DNA from: Nannocystis sp. | GTDB taxonomy: Bacteria; Myxococcota_A; Polyangia; Nannocystales; Nannocystaceae | Direction: 5' to 3' (one strand) | Length of the DNA stretch: 64,000 nucleotides | Assembly: GCF_016717175.1 (NCBI RefSeq) | Contig: NZ_JADKFZ010000004.1 | In this document: positions 2,385 through 51,819 of the stretch, one piece after another | Layout: the number at the start of each line of letters is the position of its first letter | Numbering within the stretch: position 1 is the stretch's first letter | Program-made: the position numbers and the translations under genes | The notes under the pieces: model-generated | What the model saw: only the letters and a program-made list of their open reading frames with translations | Told to the model about the DNA's origin: nothing | Databases searched by the model: none

Positions 2385-3803
2385 TCACGGTAGGTCTCCT
2401 GTACCACCGTCCGCGCCGCGTACGTAGCGAAATGTGGACGCGAAGTGGCGGATTCCCGGCGCCTCGACCTCGAATCGCAGGCCGTGGCGCAGTTTGGGGC
2501 CCTTCTCCTCGAACACGCTGCGGATTACGTCGGCGACGTATTCGAGGTGCTCAAAGGTGTAGACGCGCCGGGGGATGGTGACGCGGCACAGGTCGAGGTT
2601 CGGGCGGATGTTCTCGCCGGTGTCGGGGTCGCGGCCGATGAGCACGCTGCCGACCTCGACCGCACGCACGCCGCCCTCCTTGTAGAGCTCGGCGCACAGC
2701 AGCTGCGCGGGGAACTCGTCCTCGGGGACGCCGGGGAAGAACTTGCGGGCGTCGATGAAGACCGCGTGGCCGCCGATCGGCTCGACGATCGGCACGCCGA
2801 ACTTCTGCAGGAGCTCGCCGAAGCGGCGGACCTGGCCGATGCGGTAGGCCAGGTACGACTCGTCGGTGACCTCGCGCAGGCCCTGGGCCAGCGCCTCCAT
2901 GTCAGCGCCCGACATGCCGCCGTAGGTGTAGAAACCCTCGAACAGGATCGTCGGGGCCTTGAGGCGCTCGTACAGGAGGTCGTCGCGCACCGCGATGAAG
3001 CCGCCCATCGGCACCAGCGCGTCCTTCTTGGCGCTCATGATGCACGCGTCGGTGTACGAGCACATCTCCTGCACGATCTCTGGCACGGACTTGTGGGCGT
3101 AGCCGGTCTCGCGGGTCTTGATGAAGTAGGCGTTCTCGGCGAAGCGGGCGGCGTCGAGGACCACGAGCAGGCCGTACTGGTCGGCGACGCGGCGGACCTC
3201 GCGGATGTTGGCCATCGACACCGGCTGGCCGCCGCCGGAGTTGCAGGTCACGGTGACGAGCACGTAGGCGACGTGGCGGGCGCCGTACTCGCGGATGACG
3301 CTCTCGAGGCGGGGGATGTCGATGTTGCCCTTGAAGGGGTGGTAACCCTCCGAGGTGCGGCCGGCGTCGATTGTGCAGTCGATCGCGCGACCGCCCGCGA
3401 ACTCGATGTGGGCCTTGGTCGTGTCGAAGTGCGAGTTGCCGGGCACGATCATGTGCTTCTTGATCAGCACGAAGTCGAAGACCCGCTCGCCGGCGCGGCC
3501 TTGATGGACCGGGATGGTGTAGCGGTAGCCCATCGACTCGCGGATCTGCCGCTCCATCTCGAAGAAGGAGCGCGAGCCGGCGTAGGCCTCGTCGCCGATC
3601 ATCATGCGGCCCATCTGATGGACCGAGAGGGCCCCGGTGCCGCTGTCGGTGATGAGGTCGATGTAGACCTCGTGCGAGCCGAGGCGGAACAGGTTGTTGC
3701 CGCAGGCTTCGATCCTGCGGACCCGCTCCTCGTACGGCAGCAGCGAGATCGGTTCGACGACCTTGGCCCGGTACGGGATGATCTGTCGCTCAGGTTTCCT
3801 CAT
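2385..3803 (-). CDS. Beta-eliminating lyase: tryptophanase / tyrosine phenol-lyase family (PLP-dependent)
   Basis: 473 aa from the internal ATG at 3803 ([19 protein letters not shown]...). Strong similarity along the whole length to TnaA/Tpl, including the SAKKD PLP-lysine region. The long R-rich N-terminal extension of the listed ORF is rejected. The ATG overlaps the upstream kinase stop as ATGA. Confidence 0.85.
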   Translation of the reverse strand: MRKPERQIIPYRAKVVEPISLLPYEERVRRIEACGNNLFRLGSHEVYIDLITDSGTGALSVHQMGRMMIGDEAYAGSRSFFEMERQIRESMGYRYTIPVHQGRAGERVFDFVLIKKHMIVPGNSHFDTTKAHIEFAGGRAIDCTIDAGRTSEGYHPFKGNIDIPRLESVIREYGARHVAYVLVTVTCNSGGGQPVSMANIREVRRVADQYGLLVVLDAARFAENAYFIKTRETGYAHKSVPEIVQEMCSYTDACIMSAKKDALVPMGGFIAVRDDLLYERLKAPTILFEGFYTYGGMSGADMEALAQGLREVTDESYLAYRIGQVRRFGELLQKFGVPIVEPIGGHAVFIDARKFFPGVPEDEFPAQLLCAELYKEGGVRAVEVGSVLIGRDPDTGENIRPNLDLCRVTIPRRVYTFEHLEYVADVIRSVFEEKGPKLRHGLRFEVEAPGIRHFASTFRYVRGADGGTGDLP

Positions 3804-5815
3804 GTGCTCCCCACGGAGGTGGTCTTCGGCGCCTCCGCATCCACCGGGAAGCGGATGAGGAAGGTGACGCCGGTCGGATCGTTGCGCCGCACCGAGATGG
3901 TGCCGCGGTGCTCCATGATGATTCGGTAGCTGATCGAGAGGCCGAGCCCCGTGCCCTTGCCGACCGGCTTGGTGGTGAAGAACGGGTCGAAGATCTTCGA
4001 CATGTTCGCCTCGCTGATGCCCTCGCCGTTGTCCGAGACCGTGATCTCGACGAAGCCCTCGTTCTCGCGTGTGCGCACCGCGACCTCCCCTCCACGCTGA
4101 CACGCGTCGATGGCGTTGTTCACAAGGTTTAGTACCACCTGGTTCAGCTTCGCTGGGAAGCACGAGTGCGGGCGTGCCAGCCGCAGCTCGGACACCAAAG
4201 TCACGCCTTTGTCGCGCGCGTTGTTGCCGAGGATCATCAGCGTCTGGCGGATGCCCTCGTCGATGTCTGCGGTCTGGAATTGCGCCTCGTCGAGTCGGGC
4301 GAAATTGCGCAGCCCGAGCACGATCTCCGCCATGCGATCGAGGCCGATGAAGCTCTCCTCGAGCACCTTCTGCGTGCGCGCGAGCAGCTCCTCGATCGAG
4401 CCCTCGTCTGCCTCCTTGCGGCGCAGGACGTAGGTGAAGAAGTCGCGGAGCATGTCGAGCTGCCGCGGCGGCGGGAGCGAGCCGAGCTCGTTGCTGACGT
4501 CCTTCACGTCGGCGGCGAGGGCCTTGTCCTGGGCCAGCTTCTCGAGCGTGGTGCGGCCGGCGGCGATGCGCTCCGACTGCGGGCCGTCGACCCGCGCGAG
4601 CCAGTTCGTGGCGGCCAGGCGGCGGCTGACCGAGGTGACGCGGGCGTGGGCGAGGTGGGTGTTGTTGCGGCTGAAGGCGAGCGGGTTGTTGATCTCGTGG
4701 GCGACGCCGGCGGTGAGCTGGCCGAGGCTGGCGAGCTTCTCGCTCTGGACCAGCTGGGCCTGCGAGGTCTTGAGCTCGTGCAGCTGCTCCTTGACGGTGT
4801 CGTAGAGCTGGTTGTTGGTCAGCGAGACGGCGGCCTGGCTGGCCAGCGAGAGGGTGAGCTCGAGCGACTGGTCGTCGTAGGGGATGACGACCTCGTCGAT
4901 GTTGCCGGCGCGCAGCTCGGCCGCCCGCGAGGTCTTGCGGTTGATGAGCTGGAGCACCCCGATCACGCGGTCCTCCTGGTTCTTCATCGGCAGGACCAGC
5001 ATCGAGCGGGTGCGGTAGCCGGTGCGCTGATCGAAGGCGGGGCTGAAGCTGAACTCGGCGCGCGGGTCGAGCTCGTAGACGTTGGGGATGTTGAGCGGCT
5101 CACCGGTGGCGGCGACGTAGCCGGCGAGGGTCGACTTGCTGACGGGGATGGCGAACTTGACGAGCTCGAGGTCGGGCAGCGAGTCGTTCTGCGAGCTGGT
5201 GAAGCGCAGGCGACCCTGGCCCTCGTCGTCGCGCTCGAGGATGTAGAGCGAGCCGGCGTCGGAGCTGGTGAAGTCGCGGGCCGTGGTGAGGATGAAGTTG
5301 AGCAGGCGCTCCGGGTCGCGCTCGGCGGACAGGGCGATGCCGATGCGGTTGAGCTTGGTGATCTCGCCGGCGAGGCGGCGGCGCTCGTGCTCGAGGGCGA
5401 AGCAGCGGTCGGCGGCGGCGGCCTCGCGCACGGCGCAGCGCAGCGCGACGGCCAGCGCCTGCGGGTCGCCGTCGGGCGGGAGGATGAAGGAGAGGGCGTC
5501 GCCGAGGCGCTCGCGCAGGTTCGCGGCCGCGGGCGCGGGCAGCAGCGCGAGCACCCGCAAGGTGTGTCCGGGGGCGACGCGCAGCTCGGTGCCCTGCAGC
5601 GCCTCGTCGAGCAGCACGACGAGCGGCCGGCCGCGGCGGTTGCTCAGGGCCCGCTCGAGCTCGGCACGGTCGAGCGCTCGCAGCTCGCCAGGGAGGCCGG
5701 CGCCAGCCGCCGCGAGCGGGGACTCGGCGAACGAGCGCGAGCACAGCACGAGCGGTCTGGACTCGTCGGGGGCATGCACCGAAGCTGTCTCATTCGAATG
5801 CACCTGGGTGGCCAT
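3800..5815 (-). CDS. GAF-domain sensor histidine kinase
   Basis: Internal ATG at 5815 (MATQVHS...). Contains a GAF domain, the H-box HEINNPLAF, and a C-terminal HATPase_c with N, G1 and G2 boxes. The R-rich N-terminal extension is rejected. Confidence 0.85.
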
Positions 5816-13253: not shown

Positions 13254-13375
13254 CAGGTGCGAAGGTCCCGAGGGACAGGTGCGAAGGGGCAGGTCCCGAG
13301 GGACAGGTGCGAAGGGGCAGGTTGCAACGGACAGGTGCGAATGCGCATGTCCCGAGGGACAGGTGATCGGGAGCA
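13254..13375. repeat. Cluster of REP-like palindromic repeats (GTCCCGAGGGACAGG units, about 29-bp period x3.5) immediately 3' of the lipoprotein gene
   Basis: Direct reading: ggtcccgagggacaggtgcgaaggggca repeated. Member of the CTGTCC-N-GGACAG family seen elsewhere in the window. Confidence 0.7.
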
Positions 13376-29747: not shown

Positions 29748-30643
29748 GCGAGCTCCCGCCCGAGCTGGTGTTCGCCAGCCCGCGCAAGCTGCCGCGCGCG
29801 GCGGACCTGCGGGGGCGGGTGGTGGTGCTCGACCTGGCCTTCGCGGCCGACGGCATGGGCGGGCCGGGCTTCGCCAAGATCACCGGCCGCTTCCTCAAGG
29901 AGCTCGGGCCGCGCCTGGCTCGCTGGGTCGACCACCACGACCACGACCTGCACGCGCAGTACCGCGGCGACGCCCGCTTCGTGCTGCACACCAAGGCCGA
30001 GCACGGCGCGTGCCCGGAGATCATCACCCCCGAGCTGGTCGCGCGGACCGGCCCGATCGACACGATCGTCGCCCACTTCGACCTCGACGGGCTGTACGCG
30101 GCGGCGAAGTGGATCCTCGGCGGACGCGAGCCCTACCCGGGGGCCGACGCCGACGCCCGCGCGGTCGACACCCGCGTCGGCGAGGTGAGCCCGCGGGCCC
30201 AGCTGATCGACAAGGCGCTGCGGGTGCACTTCGACGACGCGGTGCTCAAGCAGCGCATCGTCCACTGGCTGTGCCGCGGCCTGCGACCCGGGGTCGAGCA
30301 CGACACGATCGTCGCGGCGGCGGCGGACTTCGACCAGCGCGCGAGCGAGGCGGTCGCGCTGGCGTCGCGCTACACGGTCGAGGATGACATCGCCCTGCTG
30401 CACCTGCCGAGCCACCCGCGGCCCTTCGACAAGACGGAGCTGCTGCTGCTCGGACAGCGGCGGGCGAGCGTGGCGATCGTGGTCGACGGGACGACCGTCA
30501 ACATCGCGGCGGGCTTCGACAGCGGGCTCAACTTCGTGACGCTGCTCGAGCTCGGTGGCGGGATGCCGACGCGGGTGTCGGTGCCGCTGGCTCGCCTCGA
30601 CCTCGCGCTGACCAAGATCCGCGAAGCGCTGCGCTCGCGCTGA
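29744..30643 (+). CDS. Hypothetical protein (299 aa)
   Basis: TTG start overlapping the upstream stop. Contains a HHDHDLH segment but no confidently recognized domain. Confidence 0.5.
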   Translation: MSELPPELVFASPRKLPRAADLRGRVVVLDLAFAADGMGGPGFAKITGRFLKELGPRLARWVDHHDHDLHAQYRGDARFVLHTKAEHGACPEIITPELVARTGPIDTIVAHFDLDGLYAAAKWILGGREPYPGADADARAVDTRVGEVSPRAQLIDKALRVHFDDAVLKQRIVHWLCRGLRPGVEHDTIVAAAADFDQRASEAVALASRYTVEDDIALLHLPSHPRPFDKTELLLLGQRRASVAIVVDGTTVNIAAGFDSGLNFVTLLELGGGMPTRVSVPLARLDLALTKIREALRSR

Positions 30644-30863
30644 GCTCGTCCTGCAGGCACGCGCCGCTGTATCGTTTCGGTGCAGCGCGCCGGGCTGCAT
30701 CGAAACGATGCAGTCGTGCATCCAGGTCGCGCGCGCGAGTGCCCGCTCGCGTGCGGTTCTGGGTATTTCGCGGCGGCCCGCGGCGGCCTATCCTGGGCGC
30801 CTTCTGCGGGCCTTGCAGTGTGCCTGCCCACAGGAAGCCACACGGGAAGCCAGACGGGAAGCC

Positions 30864-40222: not shown

Positions 40223-41179
40223 TCACAGCGCGCTACGAGTCGCCGAGTGGGCCGCGTGGAACGCCGCCTTGAGCCCGGCGACGCGCGGCGCGTCCTCGAG
40301 GTCGATCGGCGGGATGGTGTCGTAGGCCTCGTAGAAGATCGTCGGCTTCAGGTCATCGGCGATCTCGAGGGCGCGGCGGATCTTGCGGTTGTCGGGCACG
40401 AAGCCGCGGGGCACCAGCGACTCGATGCACTGGCCGATCGTCCCCTGCAAGCCGCAGATCAGGATCTGCACCGCGCTCGGCAGGAAGCCCCCGCGCGGCA
40501 GCCCGAGCAGGTCCTCGAGGCCGTCGATGCGCCCGGGCCCGAAGAAGCTCTCGGCGCGGCCGCTGTGGCCGCGCCAGTTCGGGTCCTGCTGGGGTCGGCT
40601 GACGGTCGGCAGGTAGTGCAGGCCGTGGTTGCGGACCAGCGCCTCGAGCTCGTCGCGGTAGCCGAGGTCGGCGCTGTAGCTGGCGCCGTGGATGATCACG
40701 TAGTCGGCCAGCGAGCGCCGCGGGTCCTGGTTGACCTCGCTGCGCACCATCGACAGGAACGGCGCAAGTCCGGTGCCCGCGGCCACGCACACCTTGATCC
40801 TGCGGTCGTCGATGCCGACGGTGTCGGGCACCGTGAACTTGCCGGTCGGGTGCACGCGCACGTACATGCGGTCGCCGGCCTTGCGGGTCCACAGCAGGTG
40901 CGTGAAGGGGTTGTCCGACTCGGGCCGCTCGACGTAGCGGATGTAGAACTCGACCAGGTCGCGGCGCTCCGGCGCCGACGCGATCGACATCGGGCGGCGC
41001 ACCCCGCCGAGCTCGACCTTCACCTCGTTGTTGAGCCCGAGGACCATGTACTGTCCGGGCACGAACCACGAGCCGGTGCCCGGCAGGGCCTCGTCGGGAC
41101 GGATGCGAAACACACCCAGCGCGGATGTGAGGTCCTCACGCTCCACCAGCGTCGCGTTGTATTCGAGCGGCTTGGCCAT
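40223..41179 (-). CDS. Ferredoxin-NADP+ reductase-like FAD/NAD(P)-binding oxidoreductase
   Basis: 318 aa from the ATG at 41179. FAD-binding RPMSIAS and NAD-binding VCVAAGTGLAPF motifs. The upstream 258 codons of the listed ORF are rejected. Confidence 0.8.
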   Translation of the reverse strand: MAKPLEYNATLVEREDLTSALGVFRIRPDEALPGTGSWFVPGQYMVLGLNNEVKVELGGVRRPMSIASAPERRDLVEFYIRYVERPESDNPFTHLLWTRKAGDRMYVRVHPTGKFTVPDTVGIDDRRIKVCVAAGTGLAPFLSMVRSEVNQDPRRSLADYVIIHGASYSADLGYRDELEALVRNHGLHYLPTVSRPQQDPNWRGHSGRAESFFGPGRIDGLEDLLGLPRGGFLPSAVQILICGLQGTIGQCIESLVPRGFVPDNRKIRRALEIADDLKPTIFYEAYDTIPPIDLEDAPRVAGLKAAFHAAHSATRSAL

Positions 41180-41302
41180 AGGCGCCGCATCATGCACCAG
41201 GGGCGCGCTCGTCGCCAGGCCCGTGAGGCGGCCCAGAGAGCCACGAAACGAAGTTACTAATGGTGGCATCTGGCCCAGGATCGGGTTGGCGCGGCGCTTG
41301 CT

Positions 41303-42109
41303 GTGGGGGCGGCCCACACCATGTCTGCCGCCCTTGAAGCCCCGCGGATCCTCGCGGTCGATGACGACGCCGACGCCCTCTGCGAGCTCGTGCGGGCGCT
41401 CGAGGGTAGCGGCTGCGTCGTGCTCATCGCCCGCGACGCCGACGCCGGGCTGCGGCTGGCGATCGAGCAGGTGCCCGACCTCATCGTCGCCAGCGTCGAT
41501 CTGCCCGGCGTCGACGGCTGGGCCCTCGCCAAGCACGTGCGCAGCCGGCCGCGTCTGGCCCTGATCCCGTTCATCTTCCTCACCCGCGGCGACACCCACG
41601 AGGATCGCCTGCGCGGCTTCCAGCTCGGCGGCGACGACTTCGTGCGCAAGCCGCTGCGGGCCGCGGAGCTCGGCGCGCGCGTGCAGGGCTCGCTGCGTCG
41701 GCAGGCGCGCATCGTCGGCGCCGTCCAGCAACATCTGCGCGAGGTCTCGGCCCGGCCCGCCCCGGAGCCTGGTCGCCTCGGCATCGCCGGGACCCTCGAG
41801 CAGGTCGGCCTCCCGGCGCTGCTGACGATGCTGGAGCTCGAGCACAAGACCGGTGTCCTGACCCTGCTGCGCCGCGATCCGCCGCGCGAGGCTTGCCTGT
41901 ACATCGTCGCGGGTCGGGTCCACGGCGCCCATCTCGCCGGACGTCAGCCGCTGCACCGCGCGGCCGCCGTCTACGAGCTGCTGCGCTGGGACAGCGGCCG
42001 CTTCGAGTTCGTCGCCCGGCCGGTCGCGCAGCGCGACGAGATCGGGCTCAGCACTGGCGAGCTACTGCTCGAGGGGGCGCGCCGCATCGACGCCGACGTG
42101 CGCTGTTAG
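41303..42109 (+). CDS. Response regulator receiver fused to a DUF4388 (PATAN-like) domain
   Basis: ILAVDDD...D...LIVASVDLPGVDGW...FLTRGD...K receiver, then GTLEQVGLPALLTMLELEHKTGVLTL (DUF4388). Confidence 0.8.
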   Translation: MGAAHTMSAALEAPRILAVDDDADALCELVRALEGSGCVVLIARDADAGLRLAIEQVPDLIVASVDLPGVDGWALAKHVRSRPRLALIPFIFLTRGDTHEDRLRGFQLGGDDFVRKPLRAAELGARVQGSLRRQARIVGAVQQHLREVSARPAPEPGRLGIAGTLEQVGLPALLTMLELEHKTGVLTLLRRDPPREACLYIVAGRVHGAHLAGRQPLHRAAAVYELLRWDSGRFEFVARPVAQRDEIGLSTGELLLEGARRIDADVRC

Positions 42110-42137
42110 CTGTCCGCGGGGACAGCTGTCGCGGACG
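42109..42137. repeat. REP-like hairpin AGCTGTCCGCGGGGACAGCT immediately after the regulator gene stop
   Basis: Direct reading. Family member. Confidence 0.7.
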
Positions 42138-42166
42138 CCTGCCGGACGCGGGCCGCATGTGCCGCC

Positions 42167-42448
42167 TCACGGCCCGCCGGTCGTCTCGCCGTCGGTCGTC
42201 CGGGCGTCGGTGTCGACGCTGCATCGTCCGGTCCCGACCTCGAAGCTGGCCCACACGCCGGCCTCGCAGCGCAGCCCGTGGTACAGCCCGCAGCTGTCGC
42301 GCTCGGGCGCACAGACCTCGCCGTCCTGCGGGCACAGGCTGCCCTCCTCGGGCAACTCCTCGCACGCCTCCGTCGCCGGCGGCGACGCCTCGCAGGCGCC
42401 GTCGGCGAGCGCGACGGTCAGCAGCAACAGCGCGCGGTGCAGCCTCAC
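42167..42448 (-). CDS. Small secreted cysteine-rich protein (93 aa)
   Basis: Signal peptide (MRLHRALLLLTVALADGA) followed by eight Cys. Could be a short shadow ORF. Confidence 0.4.
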   Translation of the reverse strand: MRLHRALLLLTVALADGACEASPPATEACEELPEEGSLCPQDGEVCAPERDSCGLYHGLRCEAGVWASFEVGTGRCSVDTDARTTDGETTGGP

Positions 42449-42575
42449 GCCGCATCCCTAGCAAAGCCAGTCGCGCTGTCGAATTTGTGGCGGCGGCGAG
42501 TGCCCACCCGGCCCGCGTGGATGTGCCACGGGTGACCTGAGGAGTGCCTGGCGAAGGACTGCGCGACGAGGCCGC

Positions 42576-45563
<2,988 letters not shown>

Positions 45564-45656
45564 GGGCGAGGCCGGGTTTTCCCACGGATCTCGGGTGGAC
45601 GCCACCACCACGACCCCCCTTGCCGAGACGCGGCCGCGGGCTAACACTGGCCCGCC

Positions 45657-46667
45657 GTGAAGGACCTCTACTCCACCCTCGGCGTCGCCAAGACGGCGGA
45701 CGCTGCCGAGATCAAGCGCTCGTATCGCAAGCTCACGCAGCAGTTTCACCCGGACAAGAACCCGGGCGACAAGCAGGCCGAGGACCGCTTCAAGGAGGTC
45801 TCGTCGGCCTACGAGGTGCTGAGCGACGCCGACAAGCGCAAGAACTATGACGAGTTCGGCGACATGAGCCTGACCCAGGGCTTCGACGTCGAGCGCGCCC
45901 GCGCCTACAAGAACGCGACCCGCGGCGGCGGCGGTGGTCGGCGCCCGCGCGGCGCTGGCGGCTTCCCGGGTGGCGGCGGCGGCTTCGACGAGAGCATGTT
46001 CTCCAACATGGGCGACGCCCGCGGCACCTCCTTCGACGACCTGCTCTCGCAGCTGTTCGGCGGCGGTCGCGTCGTCGATCCCTTCGGCGCTGGCGCTGGC
46101 GCTGGCGGCGGGCGTGCGCGTGGACCGGTGAGCCGCCGCGGCCACGACATCGAGGGCGAGATCACGATCGACTTCATGGACATGCTGCGCGGCAAGGTCG
46201 TGCCCCTGCGCATCGAGTCCGAGTCCGGCAGCGGCCGCACCCTCGACGTCAAGGTCCCGCCCGGCATCGCCGACGGCGGCAAGCTGCGCATGCGCGGGCA
46301 GGGCGGGCAGGGCGACCCGAACGGCGACATCCTCCTCACCGTCAAGGTCGCGCCGCACCCTCGCCTCAAGCGCGACGGCCAGCACCTCCTCCTCAGCCTC
46401 CCCGTCACCGCCCTCGAGGCCTACCGCGGCGGCCCCATCGACGTCCCGACCCCCGGCGGCACGGTCACCCTCAAGCTCAAGCCCGGCAGCCAGAACGGCC
46501 AGACCCTGCGCCTCAAGGGCAAGGGCATCGCCAGCCCCGGCCAGGAGCCCGGCGACCTGCTCGTCACCCTCGACCTGCGCCTGCCGCCGCCCGGCGACGC
46601 CGCCCTGCTCGCCGCGTTGGAGCAGCTCCAGGCCGACGAGGATCCGCGCGCTGACCTCGATCTGTAG
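45657..46667 (+). CDS. DnaJ-domain protein (CbpA/DnaJ-like, no zinc finger)
   Basis: J-domain YSTLGV...HPDKN with a G/F-rich region and C-terminal DnaJ_C beta domains. GTG start. Confidence 0.85.
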   Translation: MKDLYSTLGVAKTADAAEIKRSYRKLTQQFHPDKNPGDKQAEDRFKEVSSAYEVLSDADKRKNYDEFGDMSLTQGFDVERARAYKNATRGGGGGRRPRGAGGFPGGGGGFDESMFSNMGDARGTSFDDLLSQLFGGGRVVDPFGAGAGAGGGRARGPVSRRGHDIEGEITIDFMDMLRGKVVPLRIESESGSGRTLDVKVPPGIADGGKLRMRGQGGQGDPNGDILLTVKVAPHPRLKRDGQHLLLSLPVTALEAYRGGPIDVPTPGGTVTLKLKPGSQNGQTLRLKGKGIASPGQEPGDLLVTLDLRLPPPGDAALLAALEQLQADEDPRADLDL

Positions 46668-46668
46668 A

Positions 46669-46686
46669 CCTGTCCGGAGGGACAGG
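46669..46686. repeat. REP-like hairpin CCTGTCCGGAGGGACAGG, 2 nt after the DnaJ stop
   Basis: Direct reading. Perfect 7-bp stem. Confidence 0.75.
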
Positions 46687-46721
46687 TCACGTGGTCGCCG
46701 CAGCTCGGGACACCGTGCTAT

Positions 46722-47687
<966 letters not shown>

Positions 47688-47699
47688 GCCTGGGCGGCC

Positions 47700-48740
47700 C
47701 GGGTGTCGCCCGATACGAGCTTCGTCGCACGGGGTGCTGCGGTCTGGCGGCCGATACGGGCCGCTGCGGTCCGGTGGCCCGATACGAGCTCCGTCGCACG
47801 GGCCTGGAGGTGGCCCGATACGAGTTCCGTCGCACGGGCCGCTGCGGTCCGGCTGGGTGCCCGCGCAGGCTCGAGAAGCCGGAGGTCCGAGAGGGGGGTC
47901 GCCCTCAAACACGGCCTGACACACCGTCGCCGGGGCGATTCCCGGGTCTACGCCGAACTCGGTCGACCCCCCTCTCGGCCCTCCGGCGCGGCAAGCCTCC
48001 GCTCAAGGACGGTGCGGTCGGCGTCGCCGAAGCCGGACCACAGCGGCCCTGAGGGCACGCCAGGGTGGCGCGGACATGTCTCTCGGGACAGTCGTTCCGT
48101 GCGTGGGTGGCAGCTGTCCGCGGGGACATGTCGCGCAGCTGTCCGCGGGGACATGTCGCGTGTTTCCCGAGGCAGCTGTCCGCGGGGGCATGTCGCGTGG
48201 TTCCTGAGGCAGCTGTCCGCGGGGACATGTCGCGTGTTTCCCGAGGCAGCTGTCCGCGGGGACATGTCGCGTGTTTCCCGAGGCAGCTGTCCGCGGGGAC
48301 ATGTCGCGTGTCTCCCGAGGCAGCTGTCCGCGGGGGCATGTCACGTGGTTCCTGGGGCAGCTGTCCGCGGGGACATGTCGCGTGTCTCCCGAGGCAGCTG
48401 TCCGCGGGGACATGTCGCCTACACCGGAGCCGTCTCGGCGCGGATGTCCGAGCGGACATGACGTGGCTTTCAGGGCCGATGCGGGTCCGGCTTCGGCGAG
48501 CCGACCGCACCGTCCTTTAGCGAAGGCCTCCCGGGCCGGAGGCCGACGGAGGTCTCGACCGAGTCCGGCGTAGACCCGGGCATCACTCCGGCGACGGTGT
48601 GTCAGGCCGTGTTTGAGGGCGAGACCTCCGTCGGTCTCCGGCTTCTCGAGGATGCGCGGGCGCCCAGCCGGACCCGCGTCGGCCCGTGCGACGGTGTCGG
48701 TATCGGGTCAGCAGAGGCTCGTGCGACAACAGGCCAGAAG
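47700..48740. repeat. Complex non-coding repeat element: imperfect long inverted repeats (~47700-48060 and ~48470-48740) flanking about eight tandem copies of a 37-bp unit (48095-48425)
   Basis: The unit gaggcagctgtccgcggggacatgtcgcgtgtttccc repeats head-to-tail with minor variants. The left arm (...ggtcgccctcaaacacggcctgacacaccgtcgccggggcgattcccgggtctacgccgaactcggtcgacc...) is the reverse complement of the right arm (...ggtcgagaccgagtccggcgtagacccgggcatcactccggcgacggtgtgtcaggccgtgtttgagggcgagacc...). The ccgatacgag...gtcgcacggg subrepeats are mirrored too. Track ORFs here are artefacts of the repeat. Confidence 0.8.
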
Positions 48741-48747
48741 AGGCAGA

Positions 48748-49371
48748 TCAGGCCGTCGTGATCAGCCCGGCCGGCAGGTGGCCGGTGTCGTTGTAACTGA
48801 TCAGGGCCTCGAAGCCCTCGGGGTAGACGCGCAGCTCGGTGATGCCGCAGTGGCAGCAGTCGAAGCGGCTCCACGCCTCGTAGGGGAGGCGCAGCGTGCT
48901 CGTGACGAGGTAGCGGATCAGGTTGCCGTGGGTGAAGATGACGCAGAAGCTGGTCTGCTTGGGCGTGCGAAAGAAGCGCTCGCGGACGCGTTCGATCTGG
49001 CGGACGGTGACGGCGCGCTCCTCCGCGGTGGTGAAGGGCAGGCCGGGGTGGGCGCCGAACTCGGCGATCTTGTCGGCGTCGAGGAGGGGCAGGACCTCGT
49101 GCAGGTACGGCTTCACCTTGATGCGGTCGATGTTCAGCTCGTGCGCCGCGATCTCGGCCGTCTGCAGGGCGCGCGGCCAGGGGCTGGCGAACAGGCCCTC
49201 GAACTTGCCCTGCGCGGCCTCGATGAGCTGGACCAGGCGGCGGCCGGTGCGGGCGGCCTGGCGGCGGCCGAGGGCGGTCAAGCCCCATACGGTGTCGCCC
49301 TGGTCGCCGATGCGCTCGTAGTGTCCGTGTCTGACGAGCAGGATCCGGCTGTAGACGACTTCGAGGCTCAT
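48748..49371 (-). CDS. Histidine phosphatase superfamily protein (phosphoglycerate mutase-like)
   Basis: RHG catalytic motif ([10 protein letters not shown]) and a C-terminal H at [13 protein letters not shown] at 49371. Confidence 0.75.
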
Positions 49372-49721
49372 GGACGCGGAGGGTTGCTTGTAACACGACG
49401 GGCCCTGCTTGGGGTGGCCTGTGCGATCGATGCTGGCGGGGTGATCGCGGCGCGTCGGAGGCGGCGCCACAGGGCCAGGTCGCCGGCGATCAGGCGCTCC
49501 TTGTCGCAGCGGGGGAGGGCCTTGATCGCCCGCTCGAGCTGACGGGCGGCCCGCGGGGTCTGGCGGCCGCGCTTCCAGACCAGCACGACCGGGCCGCGGC
49601 CGCGGGTGTACTTGGCCCCGGCGCCGCGGTTGTGCAGGGCGATGCGGGCCGCGAGGTCGCGGGCGATCCCGGTGTAGAGGCTGCCGTCGGCGCAGCGCAG
49701 GACGTAGACCGAGTAAGTCAC
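49368..49721 (-). CDS. GIY-YIG nuclease-domain protein (YhbQ/UPF0213-like)
   Basis: [46 protein letters not shown] matches the GIY-YIG consensus. GTG at 49721 proposed. The 5' end is tandemly duplicated upstream. Confidence 0.65.
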
Positions 49722-49795
49722 CGGGCGGGCCTGTCGTGGCGGCTGCCGTCGGCGCAGCGCAGCAGGTAGACCGAGCAGGTCACCGGGCGGCACCG
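49679..49795. repeat. ~60-bp tandem duplication covering the 5' end of the GIY-YIG gene
   Basis: ggctgccgtcggcgcagcgcaggacgtagaccgagtaagtcaccgggcgg is repeated as ggctgccgtcggcgcagcgcagcaggtagaccgagcaggtcaccgggcgg 62 nt upstream. Confidence 0.75.
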
Positions 49796-51819
49796 CCGTG
49801 GGTGGCGCCGCTGTGTTCGGCGATCACCGCCAGCAGATCGGCGCCGTACTTCTCGGCCTTGGCCGGGCCGATCCCGTGGGCCAGGAGCAGCTGTTCACGC
49901 GAGCTCGGGCGCAGCAGCGCGAGGTCGCGCAGGCTGCGGTCGCTGGCGACGACGTAGGGCGGCACGCCGTCGCGGCCGGCGAGCTCCATGCGGCGGCCGC
50001 GGAGGCGCTGGAACAGGGCCAGGCCGGCGGCGTCGAGGGCCACCTCATCGCTGGTCTCGGCCGGGCCGCGGGTGGGCCTGGGCATCGACTTGCCGCTCGT
50101 GTGGGGCAGCATGCGGGTGACGCTGAGCGCGGGGAGCAGGAGGCGGGCCGGGGCCTCGCCCTTCATCACGCGGCGGCCGGCCTCGGTGAGGACCGCGAGG
50201 GGTTTGTCGTCGCCGGAGAACTCGACCCAGCCGGCGACGATGCAGCGCCGGAGCAGGCGCATGAGCCAGGCGGGGTCGTACTCCTTGAGGCTGGCGAAGG
50301 TGGGGGTGTGGATCAGGCCGGAGCGCTCGAGGCGGTCGTCGGCGCGGCCGGCGAGGAGGTTGGCGGCCGCGGCGAGGCCGAAGCGGCGGTGCACGCGGGC
50401 GACCGCGCTGAGGGCCTTGCGGACGATGAGGGTGACGGTCGCGGGGTCGGCTGTCCCGCGGGCCAGGTCGAGACAGACGTCGCAGCGGCCGCAGCCGCCG
50501 AGCGCCTCGCCCTCGTCGCCGAAGTAGCGGAGGATCGCGTCGTGGCGGCACGAGCCGCCCTCGGCCCAGCGCATGAGCTCGAGGAAGAGGTTCCACTTGT
50601 GCTCGACGACGGCGGGCTGGGGCGGGCTGTCCTCGCTGCCGCGCTCGATCAGGCGCCGGCGCAGCGGCATGTCGCCGGGGGCGATCAGCATGAGCGCGTG
50701 GGCGTCGGCGCCGTCGCGACCGGCGCGGCCGACCTCCTGGTAGTAGGCCTCGAGCGAGCTCGGCGGGGCCAGGTGGATCACGGCGCGCACGTCGGCGCGA
50801 TCGATGCCCATGCCGAAGGCGTTGGTGGCGACGACGACGTCGAGCTGGCTGAGCATGAACTGCTCCTGCGCCCGCTCGCGGACCTGGGGCTCGAGGCCGG
50901 CGTGGTAGGCCTTGCAGCGCCAGCCCTGGCCGGCCAGGCGGGCCTGCTCCTGCTCGGCGGACTTGCGGGTCGGGGCGTAGACGATCGCCGTTCCAGAAAC
51001 GAGGCTGCGGCTGAGGGTCTTGCTGGGGCCGCGGCCGAGTGCTTGCGCGAGCAATTGATCGACGGCGTGGTCGCGGCTGCGGCGGTCGTCGTCCTCGCGG
51101 ACCTGGAGGGCGAGGTTGGGGCGGGCGAAGCCCTGGATCAGCTGCGGGGTGTCGCTGTGGAGGCCGAGGCGGGCGAGGATCTCGTCGCGGACGATCGGCG
51201 TGGCGGTGGCGGTGCAGGCGAGCACGCGGGCGTGGGCGTGCTCGCGCACCAGCTCGCCGATCTGCAGGTACTCGGGGCGGAAGTCGTGGCCCCACTCGCT
51301 GATGCAGTGGGCCTCGTCGATGGCGAGCAGGGGGACGTGGATCTTGCGCAGGATCTCGCGGAAGGCGGGCGAGCCGAGGCGCTCGGGGGCGGCGTAGATC
51401 AGCTTGTACTGGCCGCGGGCGAGGCCGGAGAGGCGGGCGCTGATCTCGTGGCCGGGCAGGGTGCTGGCGAGGAAGGTCGCCGCGACGCCGCGGGCTTGCA
51501 GGGCCTGGACCTGGTCGGCCATCAGGGCGATCAGCGGCGAGAGCACCACGGTGGTGCCCGGCAGCAGCAGCGCCGGGAGCTGAAAGCTGAGGCTCTTGCC
51601 GCCGCCGGTCGGGGCGATCAGCAGGAGGCGGCCGGCGTCGAGCAGGGTGGTGATCGCCTCGCGCTGGCCGGGGCGGAAGCTCTCGAGGCCGAGCTGGCGC
51701 AGGGCGGCCTCGAGGTCGAAGCCGTGATCATGATCGAGGCCATGATCGAGGCCATGATCGAGGCCGTGATCGAGGGCTCGAACATCCGCGTCGACGTCCA
51801 TGTCGGCTGGGGCGCTCAC
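49780..51819 (-). CDS. recQ: ATP-dependent DNA helicase RecQ
   Basis: Helicase motifs I-VI ([12 protein letters not shown]), the RQC zinc-binding cysteines and a C-terminal HRDC domain. The N-terminus carries [12 protein letters not shown] encoded by a 12-bp tandem repeat (51716-51778). Confidence 0.9.

Follow-up and report, generated by a model that had tools for sequence, protein, structure and literature searches.

The DNA analysed here is a stretch of 64,000 nt from Nannocystis sp. (the window), and the region in question is the gap between two convergent genes, lipA and a histidine phosphatase gene. Coordinates without another label are positions in the window, and L-numbers designate the loci or contigs that were compared. 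The gap (47688-48747, 1,060 nt) contains two inverted arms with a 37-nt tandem array between them. We read it as a pile-up of lineage-specific modular foldback repeats between convergent genes, belonging to a non-autonomous family of the BOX, REPIN or miniature inverted-repeat transposable element (MITE) kind, and we give this reading a probability of roughly 0.65. lipA and the histidine phosphatase gene each carry one sense-oriented copy of the repeat directly past the stop codon, and their convergence sets the two copies tail to tail, giving the semblance of long inverted arms. The tail module between the copies would then have been amplified by slippage or unequal exchange to yield the 37-nt array. 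The original prediction had found no credible open reading frame (ORF) in the region. This agrees with the GC content at the three codon positions, which is 0.69/0.70/0.75 in the gap (no periodicity) versus 0.73/0.47/0.96 in lipA, and with a Pfam search of the gap ORFs, which returned no family above threshold.

Both arms are members of a dispersed family. When a 20-mer of an arm's apical region was searched against one genome per prokaryotic species, it occurred at 14 places in 11 loci, all of them in the wastewater metagenome-assembled genome (MAG) Nannocystis sp. EsbW MAXAC.145, and one further match lay at the end of a contig in another Nannocystis MAG. An nhmmer profile found 15 copies in EsbW MAXAC.145, two of which are diverged and do not contain the 20-mer, and further copies are present in one JGI metagenome, Ga0073899. 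Most matches from a metagenome search for the 3' end pattern were due to chance, and true members came only from the contigs of one sample. Copies counted to date amount to tens, and about 160 kb of element-bearing genome sequence was inspected. When the window was compared with these loci by BLAST, homology was limited to 47828-48056/48090 and 48470-48693, the flanks being unrelated. The 20-mer had no match among viral contigs, nor did the element by blastn among plasmid and phage records, and no family member was present in about 58 kb from seven related loci, among them a relative with a 94%-identical histidine phosphatase. Searches of the literature for interspersed repeats or MITEs of Nannocystis or other myxobacteria yielded nothing relevant. 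The family appears to be undescribed so far, but of an ordinary kind among bacterial interspersed repeats.

Copies of the family share a modular build. The 5' module is about 36-42 nt long, with the consensus GGCGCGGAnGACGTCGCACGGGCCGGTGCGGTCCGGCTGG (in the window's species its first part reads CCCGATAC...), and one to four tandem copies of it stand ahead of the body, also at other loci. The body measures about 215 nt and is enclosed by an 18-19-bp terminal inverted repeat, GGGCCGGTGCGGTCCGGC ... GCCGGACCGCACCGGCCC, with 17 pairs and 95% of cells paired; the right copy in the window has a compensated 1-nt indel there. Inside, a long helix encloses a nearly invariant apical region of about 55 nt, and a subtype (L010b/L032b) has a different apical sequence. 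The tail is marked by the motifs GCGACATG, GGACATGTCC and TGTCC-N4-GGACA, and at some loci it is tandemly repeated, as in L010, with two units of 73 nt, and its orthologue L032, with three. Two loci show further variation in modules. At L004 (3062-3199) a 68-nt tandem duplication comprises a 5' unit together with the last 22 nt and the stop codon of the upstream gene; as this duplication crosses the gene end, 5' arrays grow by local duplication regardless of the gene border. It does not have the form of a classical target-site duplication. At L009 (6367-6531), downstream of a convergent gene, there is a body-less mosaic in which a 14-nt tail-motif array (ATGTCGCTACCGCC, about 5.5 copies) is fused to two reversed 5' units.

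The position of the copies follows a rule. In 18 of 21 copies, representing 16 of 18 independent sites, a same-strand ORF with high GC at third codon positions stops 11-182 nt upstream of the body, and no copy shows the opposite arrangement. The distance from stop codon to body is occupied by 5' units, which start 1-32 nt past the stop codon. Copies that stand alone are flanked by co-directional genes (L003, L004, L005), and facing pairs occur only at convergent genes (the window, L006, L008, L010/L032). Since copies are sense-oriented after stop codons, facing pairs are found only where genes converge. Moreover, each copy in a convergent pair follows its own gene, and orientation thus goes with the gene rather than with the direction of replication. 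The host genes are functionally unrelated: they encode lipoyl synthase, histidine phosphatase, an MFS transporter, RPE65, an M48 peptidase, a NUDIX protein, a DUF3556 protein, an esterase, an FG-GAP protein, a VWA protein and an HU-like protein.

The two arms of the window (about 47793-48063 and 48470-48727) are indeed reverse complements of each other, as had been predicted, although their length is about 270 nt each and not 360 (inverted-repeat pairs I1, I2, I3 and I5, and alignment). Each arm by itself is a long hairpin, and the left body has a DNA fold of -88 kcal/mol (z = -4.8). The left and right bodies are 83.3% identical, whereas the left body shares 94.9% identity with L010a and L006b of the other Nannocystis genome. 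The left arm is thus related more closely to copies from a different genome than to its partner, which makes the two arms independent copies and not sisters. The right body is identical across eight independent public contigs. The left 5' array is defined by the direct repeat families D2-D4, a Tandem Repeats Finder (TRF) row at 47729-47786 and a pattern search, while the right 5' modules consist of one clear unit (GGCCCGTGCGACGGTGTCGGTATCGGG on the + strand, 48681-48707) and a degenerate one. The sequence after the histidine phosphatase stop codon (48727-48747; contigs L014, L017-L020 and L023) is a run of CTGGCCTnTT-like units with an 11-nt indel between strains. The whole region matches its own reverse complement along 967 nt (E = 8e-127), in part because the array unit is itself quasi-palindromic. 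The public contig L016 independently shows the right arm, the array and the left hairpin, and an assembly artefact is therefore excluded as the origin of this structure. Short-read assemblies do break here: ten public contigs terminate within the arms and one terminates in a foldback chimera. At its end (1923-2052), L016 runs into a foldback of the left hairpin and then into Nextera adapter (CTGTCTCTTATACACATCT), a hairpin-induced assembly or library artefact.

Position rule and arm relationships also bear on the possibility that the region is a single non-autonomous transposon of about 1 kb, with long terminal inverted repeats and the 37-bp array as internal cargo. The region is quasi-palindromic overall, and the outer ends of its arms are defined and lie near both stop codons, as such an element would predict. 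However, solo arms are common and obey the upstream-gene rule, the arms are not mutual closest relatives, and the 37-nt unit occurs nowhere else in the DNA examined, which included 96 kb from the other genome with the element (loci of the EsbW MAG). Furthermore, other facing pairs enclose unrelated DNA: L006 has unique sequence, L007 a STAND NTPase/metallophosphatase gene and L008 a decayed IS3 fragment. We consider this explanation very unlikely. The MITE-like character proposed at first is thus kept for the arms, as members of a multi-copy dispersed family, but not for the 1-kb region, which is not one element bounded by terminal inverted repeats. Cargo or a transposase between paired copies was also considered as a candidate; the L007 gene and an IS3 orfA remnant in L008 are all that came up, and the ends of the remnant are unrelated. 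The latter (L008, about 3375-4640) is a lower-GC, decayed IS3-family fragment with orfA, HTH_Tnp_1 and frameshifts, lying between facing copies.

Further information about the hairpin was obtained from a 17-copy alignment. In the predicted structure 96.3% of cells are paired. Double changes were counted in 17 pairs, whereas shuffles gave 6.7 +/- 1.3 (none of 500 reached 17) and slid controls 5-7. Helix 4, with 24 pairs, is the clearest case: 13 of its pairs have double changes and none has one-sided changes, 99.3% of its cells are paired, and its 404 Watson-Crick cells are accompanied by zero G-T. Within this helix lies a hypervariable segment of 11-13 nt with at least nine haplotypes among 24 copies, and the opposite arm is its exact reverse complement in all complete copies except one. 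Immediately beside it there is a conserved T-C mismatch, so that the mirroring is not accounted for by a blanket palindrome-correction process. A guide-target role of the segment was likewise rejected, as it has no match (up to 1 mismatch) inside 1.5 kb of any copy. Wobble pairs show no strand preference (7 sense-compatible G-T cells versus 13 antisense-compatible A-C cells).

This constraint could mean that the hairpin is kept for a function at the 3' end of genes, in termination, mRNA protection or protein binding, its spread being secondary. Such a function overlaps with the repeat family that we favour and differs from it only in what maintains the copies. It would account for the sense orientation directly past stop codons at 16 of the 18 independent sites, for the strong pairing constraint and for the nearly invariant apical region of about 55 nt. 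It is also consistent with the site shared by L041 (1422-2290) and L013 (3491-4433), where the element is 95.7% identical and the upstream coding flank 85.6%, and SPRITE repeats near the 3' ends of coding sequences have been proposed as co-opted terminators (PMC3049150). On the other hand, the lack of strand asymmetry and a helix 4 without G-T suit a constraint at the level of DNA or of both strands. In addition, the region shows neither a T-tract terminator nor a promoter pattern nor an Rfam family, and close relatives have junctions of 4-16 nt without the element. Specifically, no terminator-like site was found in 47500-48900, where hairpins are plentiful and T tracts absent, and there were no sigma-70 promoters in the region. 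Rfam 15 gave no covariance-model match at the gathering score in the whole window, and for the region itself only chance-level noise of the miRNA type (E >= 0.2). On this evidence a 3'-end function is a tentative alternative, clearly less probable than our reading. The region might also be the large structured RNA that the original prediction had suggested, but the transcribed strand is not favoured and there is no Rfam match. More speculatively, the repeat might be a new gene-3'-end-seeking element or 3' untranslated region module, with the apical domain as a protein handle, the mirrored hypervariable segment as an address or identity code upheld by active copying, and placement by insertion coupled to transcription or translation instead of by selection acting on random insertions. 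We regard this as unlikely.

We interpret the array between the two copies as a variable-number tandem repeat that arose by amplification of the tail module. TRF describes it with period 37, 7.7 copies, 92% matches and a score of 498, plus one 25-nt period at its start. The 25-nt core GCAGCTGTCCGCGGGGACATGTCGC occurs 9 times versus 0.00 expected; the first two cores abut, and the remaining ones are spaced by 12-nt linkers, which gives the period of 37. The proposed head-to-tail 37-nt repeats are therefore real, with nine cores instead of eight and a first period of 25 nt. The array was also correctly held not to be a clustered regularly interspaced short palindromic repeat (CRISPR) locus, since its linkers are variants of one sequence and so are not spacers, and since the first two cores abut. 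Every core holds the hairpin TGTCC-GCGG-GGACA, and the array is self-complementary (RNA fold z = -8.4). The core is homologous to the tail module of the family, with 18 of 21 matches and a score of 27, against 13.1 +/- 2.2 in a shuffle control in which 0 of 1000 reached 27. In L016 the array is 62 nt shorter, by one 37-nt and one 25-nt unit.

The nine evenly spaced TGTCC-GCGG-GGACA palindromes could also be taken as a protein-binding array, i.e. an iteron-like or centromere-like site or an origin. A dyad-symmetric 14-mer at regular spacing, with a dyad motif found 17 times in the window versus 0.04 expected, would fit such a site. Its copy number nevertheless varies between samples, and array and arms are both missing in relatives whose neighbouring proteins are 94% identical. 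The context is chromosomal and housekeeping, the ORFs tested include no gene for replication or partition, and the unit derives from the tail of the repeat. We therefore find a binding array highly improbable; the origin-like region suggested at first is unlikely on the same grounds, namely an array length that varies between samples and the absence of the whole region from close relatives.

The hairpin motif within the 37-nt unit is found well beyond the array. In the form (C)CTGTCC-N4-GGACAG(G) it accounts for the 17 occurrences in the window just mentioned, which include those at 13348, 40141, 40191, 42111, 46671, 59522 and 60065 and, within a gene, at 34991 and 35500. Several of these hairpins stand directly past stop codons (OPT, NAD_binding_1, response regulator, DnaJ). 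There are 10 of them in 96 kb of EsbW MAG loci, but some 58 kb from closer relatives contain almost none. The motif resembles a lineage-specific hairpin of the repetitive extragenic palindromic (REP) or terminator kind. L005 contains more minisatellites with the same hairpin motif, at 91-231 and 1870-1973, which are intergenic arrays of the GGGACAGGTCG type with periods of 36 and 14/28/42.

We compared the locus with close relatives for presence or absence of the element, as the original prediction had proposed. The element is absent there, and the flanking junctions differ by an inversion. In L024 (also L027/L028) the histidine phosphatase gene lies 16 nt from a convergent NAD_binding_1 gene, and in L048 lipA lies 4 nt from a convergent MVP-like gene, in both cases with no family member. 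The segments of the window that match these junction partners are 40251-42095 and 33393-30876. Thus, neither junction carries the element in the relatives L024, L027, L047 and L048, and the junction partners differ owing to the inversion. These junctions indicate that a block of about 7.5 kb (40.25-47.69 kb) was inverted in place in the lineage of the window. The block, 40251-47689, comprises NAD_binding_1, response regulator/DUF4388, Radical_SAM_N2-like, DnaJ and lipA genes. The region studied here is one of its two junctions; the other (40130-40250) has two CCTGTCC-N4-GGACAGG hairpins and no family member. Simple models of recombination or replicative transposition need a copy at each breakpoint, and the arms were for this reason rejected as the cause of the inversion. 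A second synteny break at a repeat is seen between L041 and L013, where synteny is lost about 88 nt beyond the tail. A further structural variant was observed in L021 (1147-1687): the histidine phosphatase is the identical 207-aa protein, but the sequence diverges 2 nt past the stop codon, and a convergent NYN-domain gene lies 14 nt from it in place of the repeat. The gene whose orthologues adjoin lipA in relatives (30612-33392 in the window) encodes a 926-aa protein with a major-vault-protein shoulder, Vault_3 repeat domains and SPFH/Band 7.

Strain variation at the locus itself was found in sample ERZ965210. Its contig L001 encodes the exact lipA protein of the window and matches the window without a difference along the lipA flank, then continues into the inner sequence of the right arm, the switch lying within a shared 15-mer, CTCGAGAAGCCGGAG. 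A junction of lipA flank and right-arm inner sequence is what would be expected if the arms were recombination sites and the segment between them an invertible DNA switch. Yet L015, from the same sample, joins the histidine phosphatase flank to that same inner sequence in the normal orientation, and both contigs end at one coordinate, roughly k-1 bases after the final distinguishing base. Identical end points mean that the two copies share the inner segment, which is the expected behaviour of a de Bruijn assembler. No recombinase gene was found among the neighbouring ORFs, and we judge a switch extremely unlikely. From these contig sequences, it is concluded that both copies in the ERZ965210 strain carry one inner hairpin, via gene conversion or homogenisation.

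Taking these results together with the family that we favour, we hypothesize that its members are, or were until recently, non-autonomous DNA elements, for which an enzyme encoded elsewhere, probably one that recognises the hairpin, would have made new copies at the 3' ends of genes. The end modules would then be amplified in tandem, and copies may swap sequence through gene conversion. The GC-rich hairpins would be co-transcribed with the upstream gene and may act as 3'-end structures, as terminators or exonuclease blocks. Several observations weigh against this proposal. No target-site duplication could be defined, as the borders are masked by tandem 5' and tail modules and the alignments contain no consistent short direct repeat. 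The ORFs tested in the window and the surroundings of the copies (the 160 kb inspected) yielded no transposase, RAYT, integrase or reverse transcriptase, and no ORF tested matched Y1_Tnp. Strict sense placement past stop codons is atypical of MITEs, and tolerance of insertions alone does not explain it. The L041/L013 element, conserved above its coding flank, points to selection or homogenisation and not to neutral junk. Finally, the empty sites in relatives are confounded by the 7.5-kb inversion with its junction here, so that no clean pair of filled and empty sites is available.

The features of the locus are collected in the table below. The extent of the histidine phosphatase gene was re-set from its translation, its ATG start being picked in that way, and the exact 207-aa protein is encoded in 13 public contigs. 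Further along, at the boundary of the GIY-YIG and RecQ genes (49679-49801), there is a 62-nt tandem repeat in 2 copies with 86% match.

Table. Features of the gap between lipA and the histidine phosphatase gene and of the two genes that border it.
Feature	Position	Strand	Description and basis
lipA (lipoyl synthase)	46722-47687	+	Pfam Radical_SAM and LIAS_N; stop codon directly precedes the left composite
Left 5' module array	47696-47853	+	Three imperfect units of about 27-40 nt, CCCGATACGAGyTCCGTCGCACGGGCC(GCTGCGGTCCGG); begins 9 nt past the lipA stop
Left copy body	47828-48056	+	BLAST borders versus 12 other loci; nhmmer E = 1.4e-80; inverted repeats I4, I12
Left body, outer stem	47836-47854/48031-48049
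Left body, long helix	47863-47904/47961-48002
Left body, hypervariable mirrored segment	47887-47901/47964-47978
Left body, conserved apical region	47905-47960
Left tail module	48057-48109	+	GGACATGTC / GGGACAGTCG motifs; aligned with the family tail, A3 columns 243-287
Minisatellite	48110-48418	no strand	Nine copies of the 25-nt core GCAGCTGTCCGCGGGGACATGTCGC
Right tail module	48419-48469	-	Perfect hairpin ATGTCC-GAGC-GGACAT at 48444-48459
Right copy body	48470-48693	-	More diverged family member; BLAST borders; nhmmer E = 2.9e-67; inverted repeats I9, I10
Right body, outer stem	48473-48492/48666-48685
Right body, long helix	48535-48560/48617-48642
Right body, hypervariable mirrored segment	48543-48557/48620-48634
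Right 5' modules	48674-48745	-	Inverted repeats I5-I7 and alignment; end 2-3 nt from the His_Phos stop codon
Histidine phosphatase, 207 aa	48748-49371	-	Pfam His_Phos_1; host gene of the right copy

In practical terms, masking the family during annotation of genomes from Nannocystis and related myxobacteria can avoid the calling of ORFs generated by repeats, and the family accounts for the breaks in short-read assemblies at this locus. It also adds a myxobacterial case to the small set of modular interspersed repeats such as BOX and bacterial interspersed mosaic elements (BIME)/REPIN. This case is sharper than the classic ones in its near-absolute sense placement past stop codons and in a hypervariable stem segment that is perfectly Watson-Crick. 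Identification of a partner enzyme could make the family informative on how hairpin repeats choose gene ends. The locus exemplifies, in addition, how convergent-gene junctions gather repeats and coincide with rearrangement breakpoints.

Among known systems, the pneumococcal BOX, RUP and SPRITE repeats are modular, clustered and over-represented between convergent genes (Croucher et al. 2011, PMC3049150). BOX consists of boxA, a variable number of boxB and boxC, and no target-site duplication or empty site has been established there either (PMC3049150). The Nannocystis repeat resembles BOX in being a modular mosaic with variable-number tandem modules, whose end modules pair into a stable stem-loop and whose length varies between strains. 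It shares with all three families its clustering and its enrichment between convergent genes and near the 3' ends of coding sequences. However, BOX belongs to Streptococcus, a different phylum, and no sequence relation is implied. The variable modules of the Nannocystis repeat lie outside the hairpin body, on its 5' and 3' sides, whereas those of BOX are inside, and its strictly sense orientation to the upstream gene differs from the mild strand bias of BOX.

In REPIN hairpins compensatory changes are common (Bertels & Rainey 2011, PMC3116915). Like REPINs and REP-BIMEs, which are mobilised by RAYT (TnpA_REP), the Nannocystis repeats are extragenic, lineage-restricted, inverted-doublet hairpins with compensatory changes in a variable paired segment. 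As with REPINs, they form higher-order clusters and the family may persist over long periods. Unlike REPINs, the body has about 215 nt instead of about 70-110 nt, and its most conserved part is the apical region and not the ends. So far, copies number in the tens and not in the hundreds, REPINs have no comparable stop-codon and sense rule, and no RAYT was present among the ORFs tested. A REP unit has about 20-40 nt and a high copy number; the CCTGTCC-N4-GGACAGG hairpin would fit this better than the body, which does not.

Bacterial MITEs, such as Correia elements, Nezha and ERIC, are small, non-coding, multi-copy sequences with terminal inverted repeats and tight folding that are co-transcribed with their neighbours. 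The Nannocystis repeat, of about 270 nt, is similarly non-coding, with terminal inverted repeats and dispersed copies in unrelated flanks. It differs from MITEs in that neither a target-site duplication nor a parent insertion sequence with matching ends was identified, and in that its ends carry arrays of tandem modules. The minisatellites known as mycobacterial interspersed repetitive units (MIRUs) are made of intergenic tandem units of 40-100 nt, oriented with the gene and abutting stop codons, with a copy number that varies between strains. MIRUs lie inside operons and have small overlapping ORFs, whereas the Nannocystis arrays show no coding signal and are joined to a foldback body. Apart from this, both the 5' unit arrays and the 37-nt array of the Nannocystis repeat resemble MIRUs.

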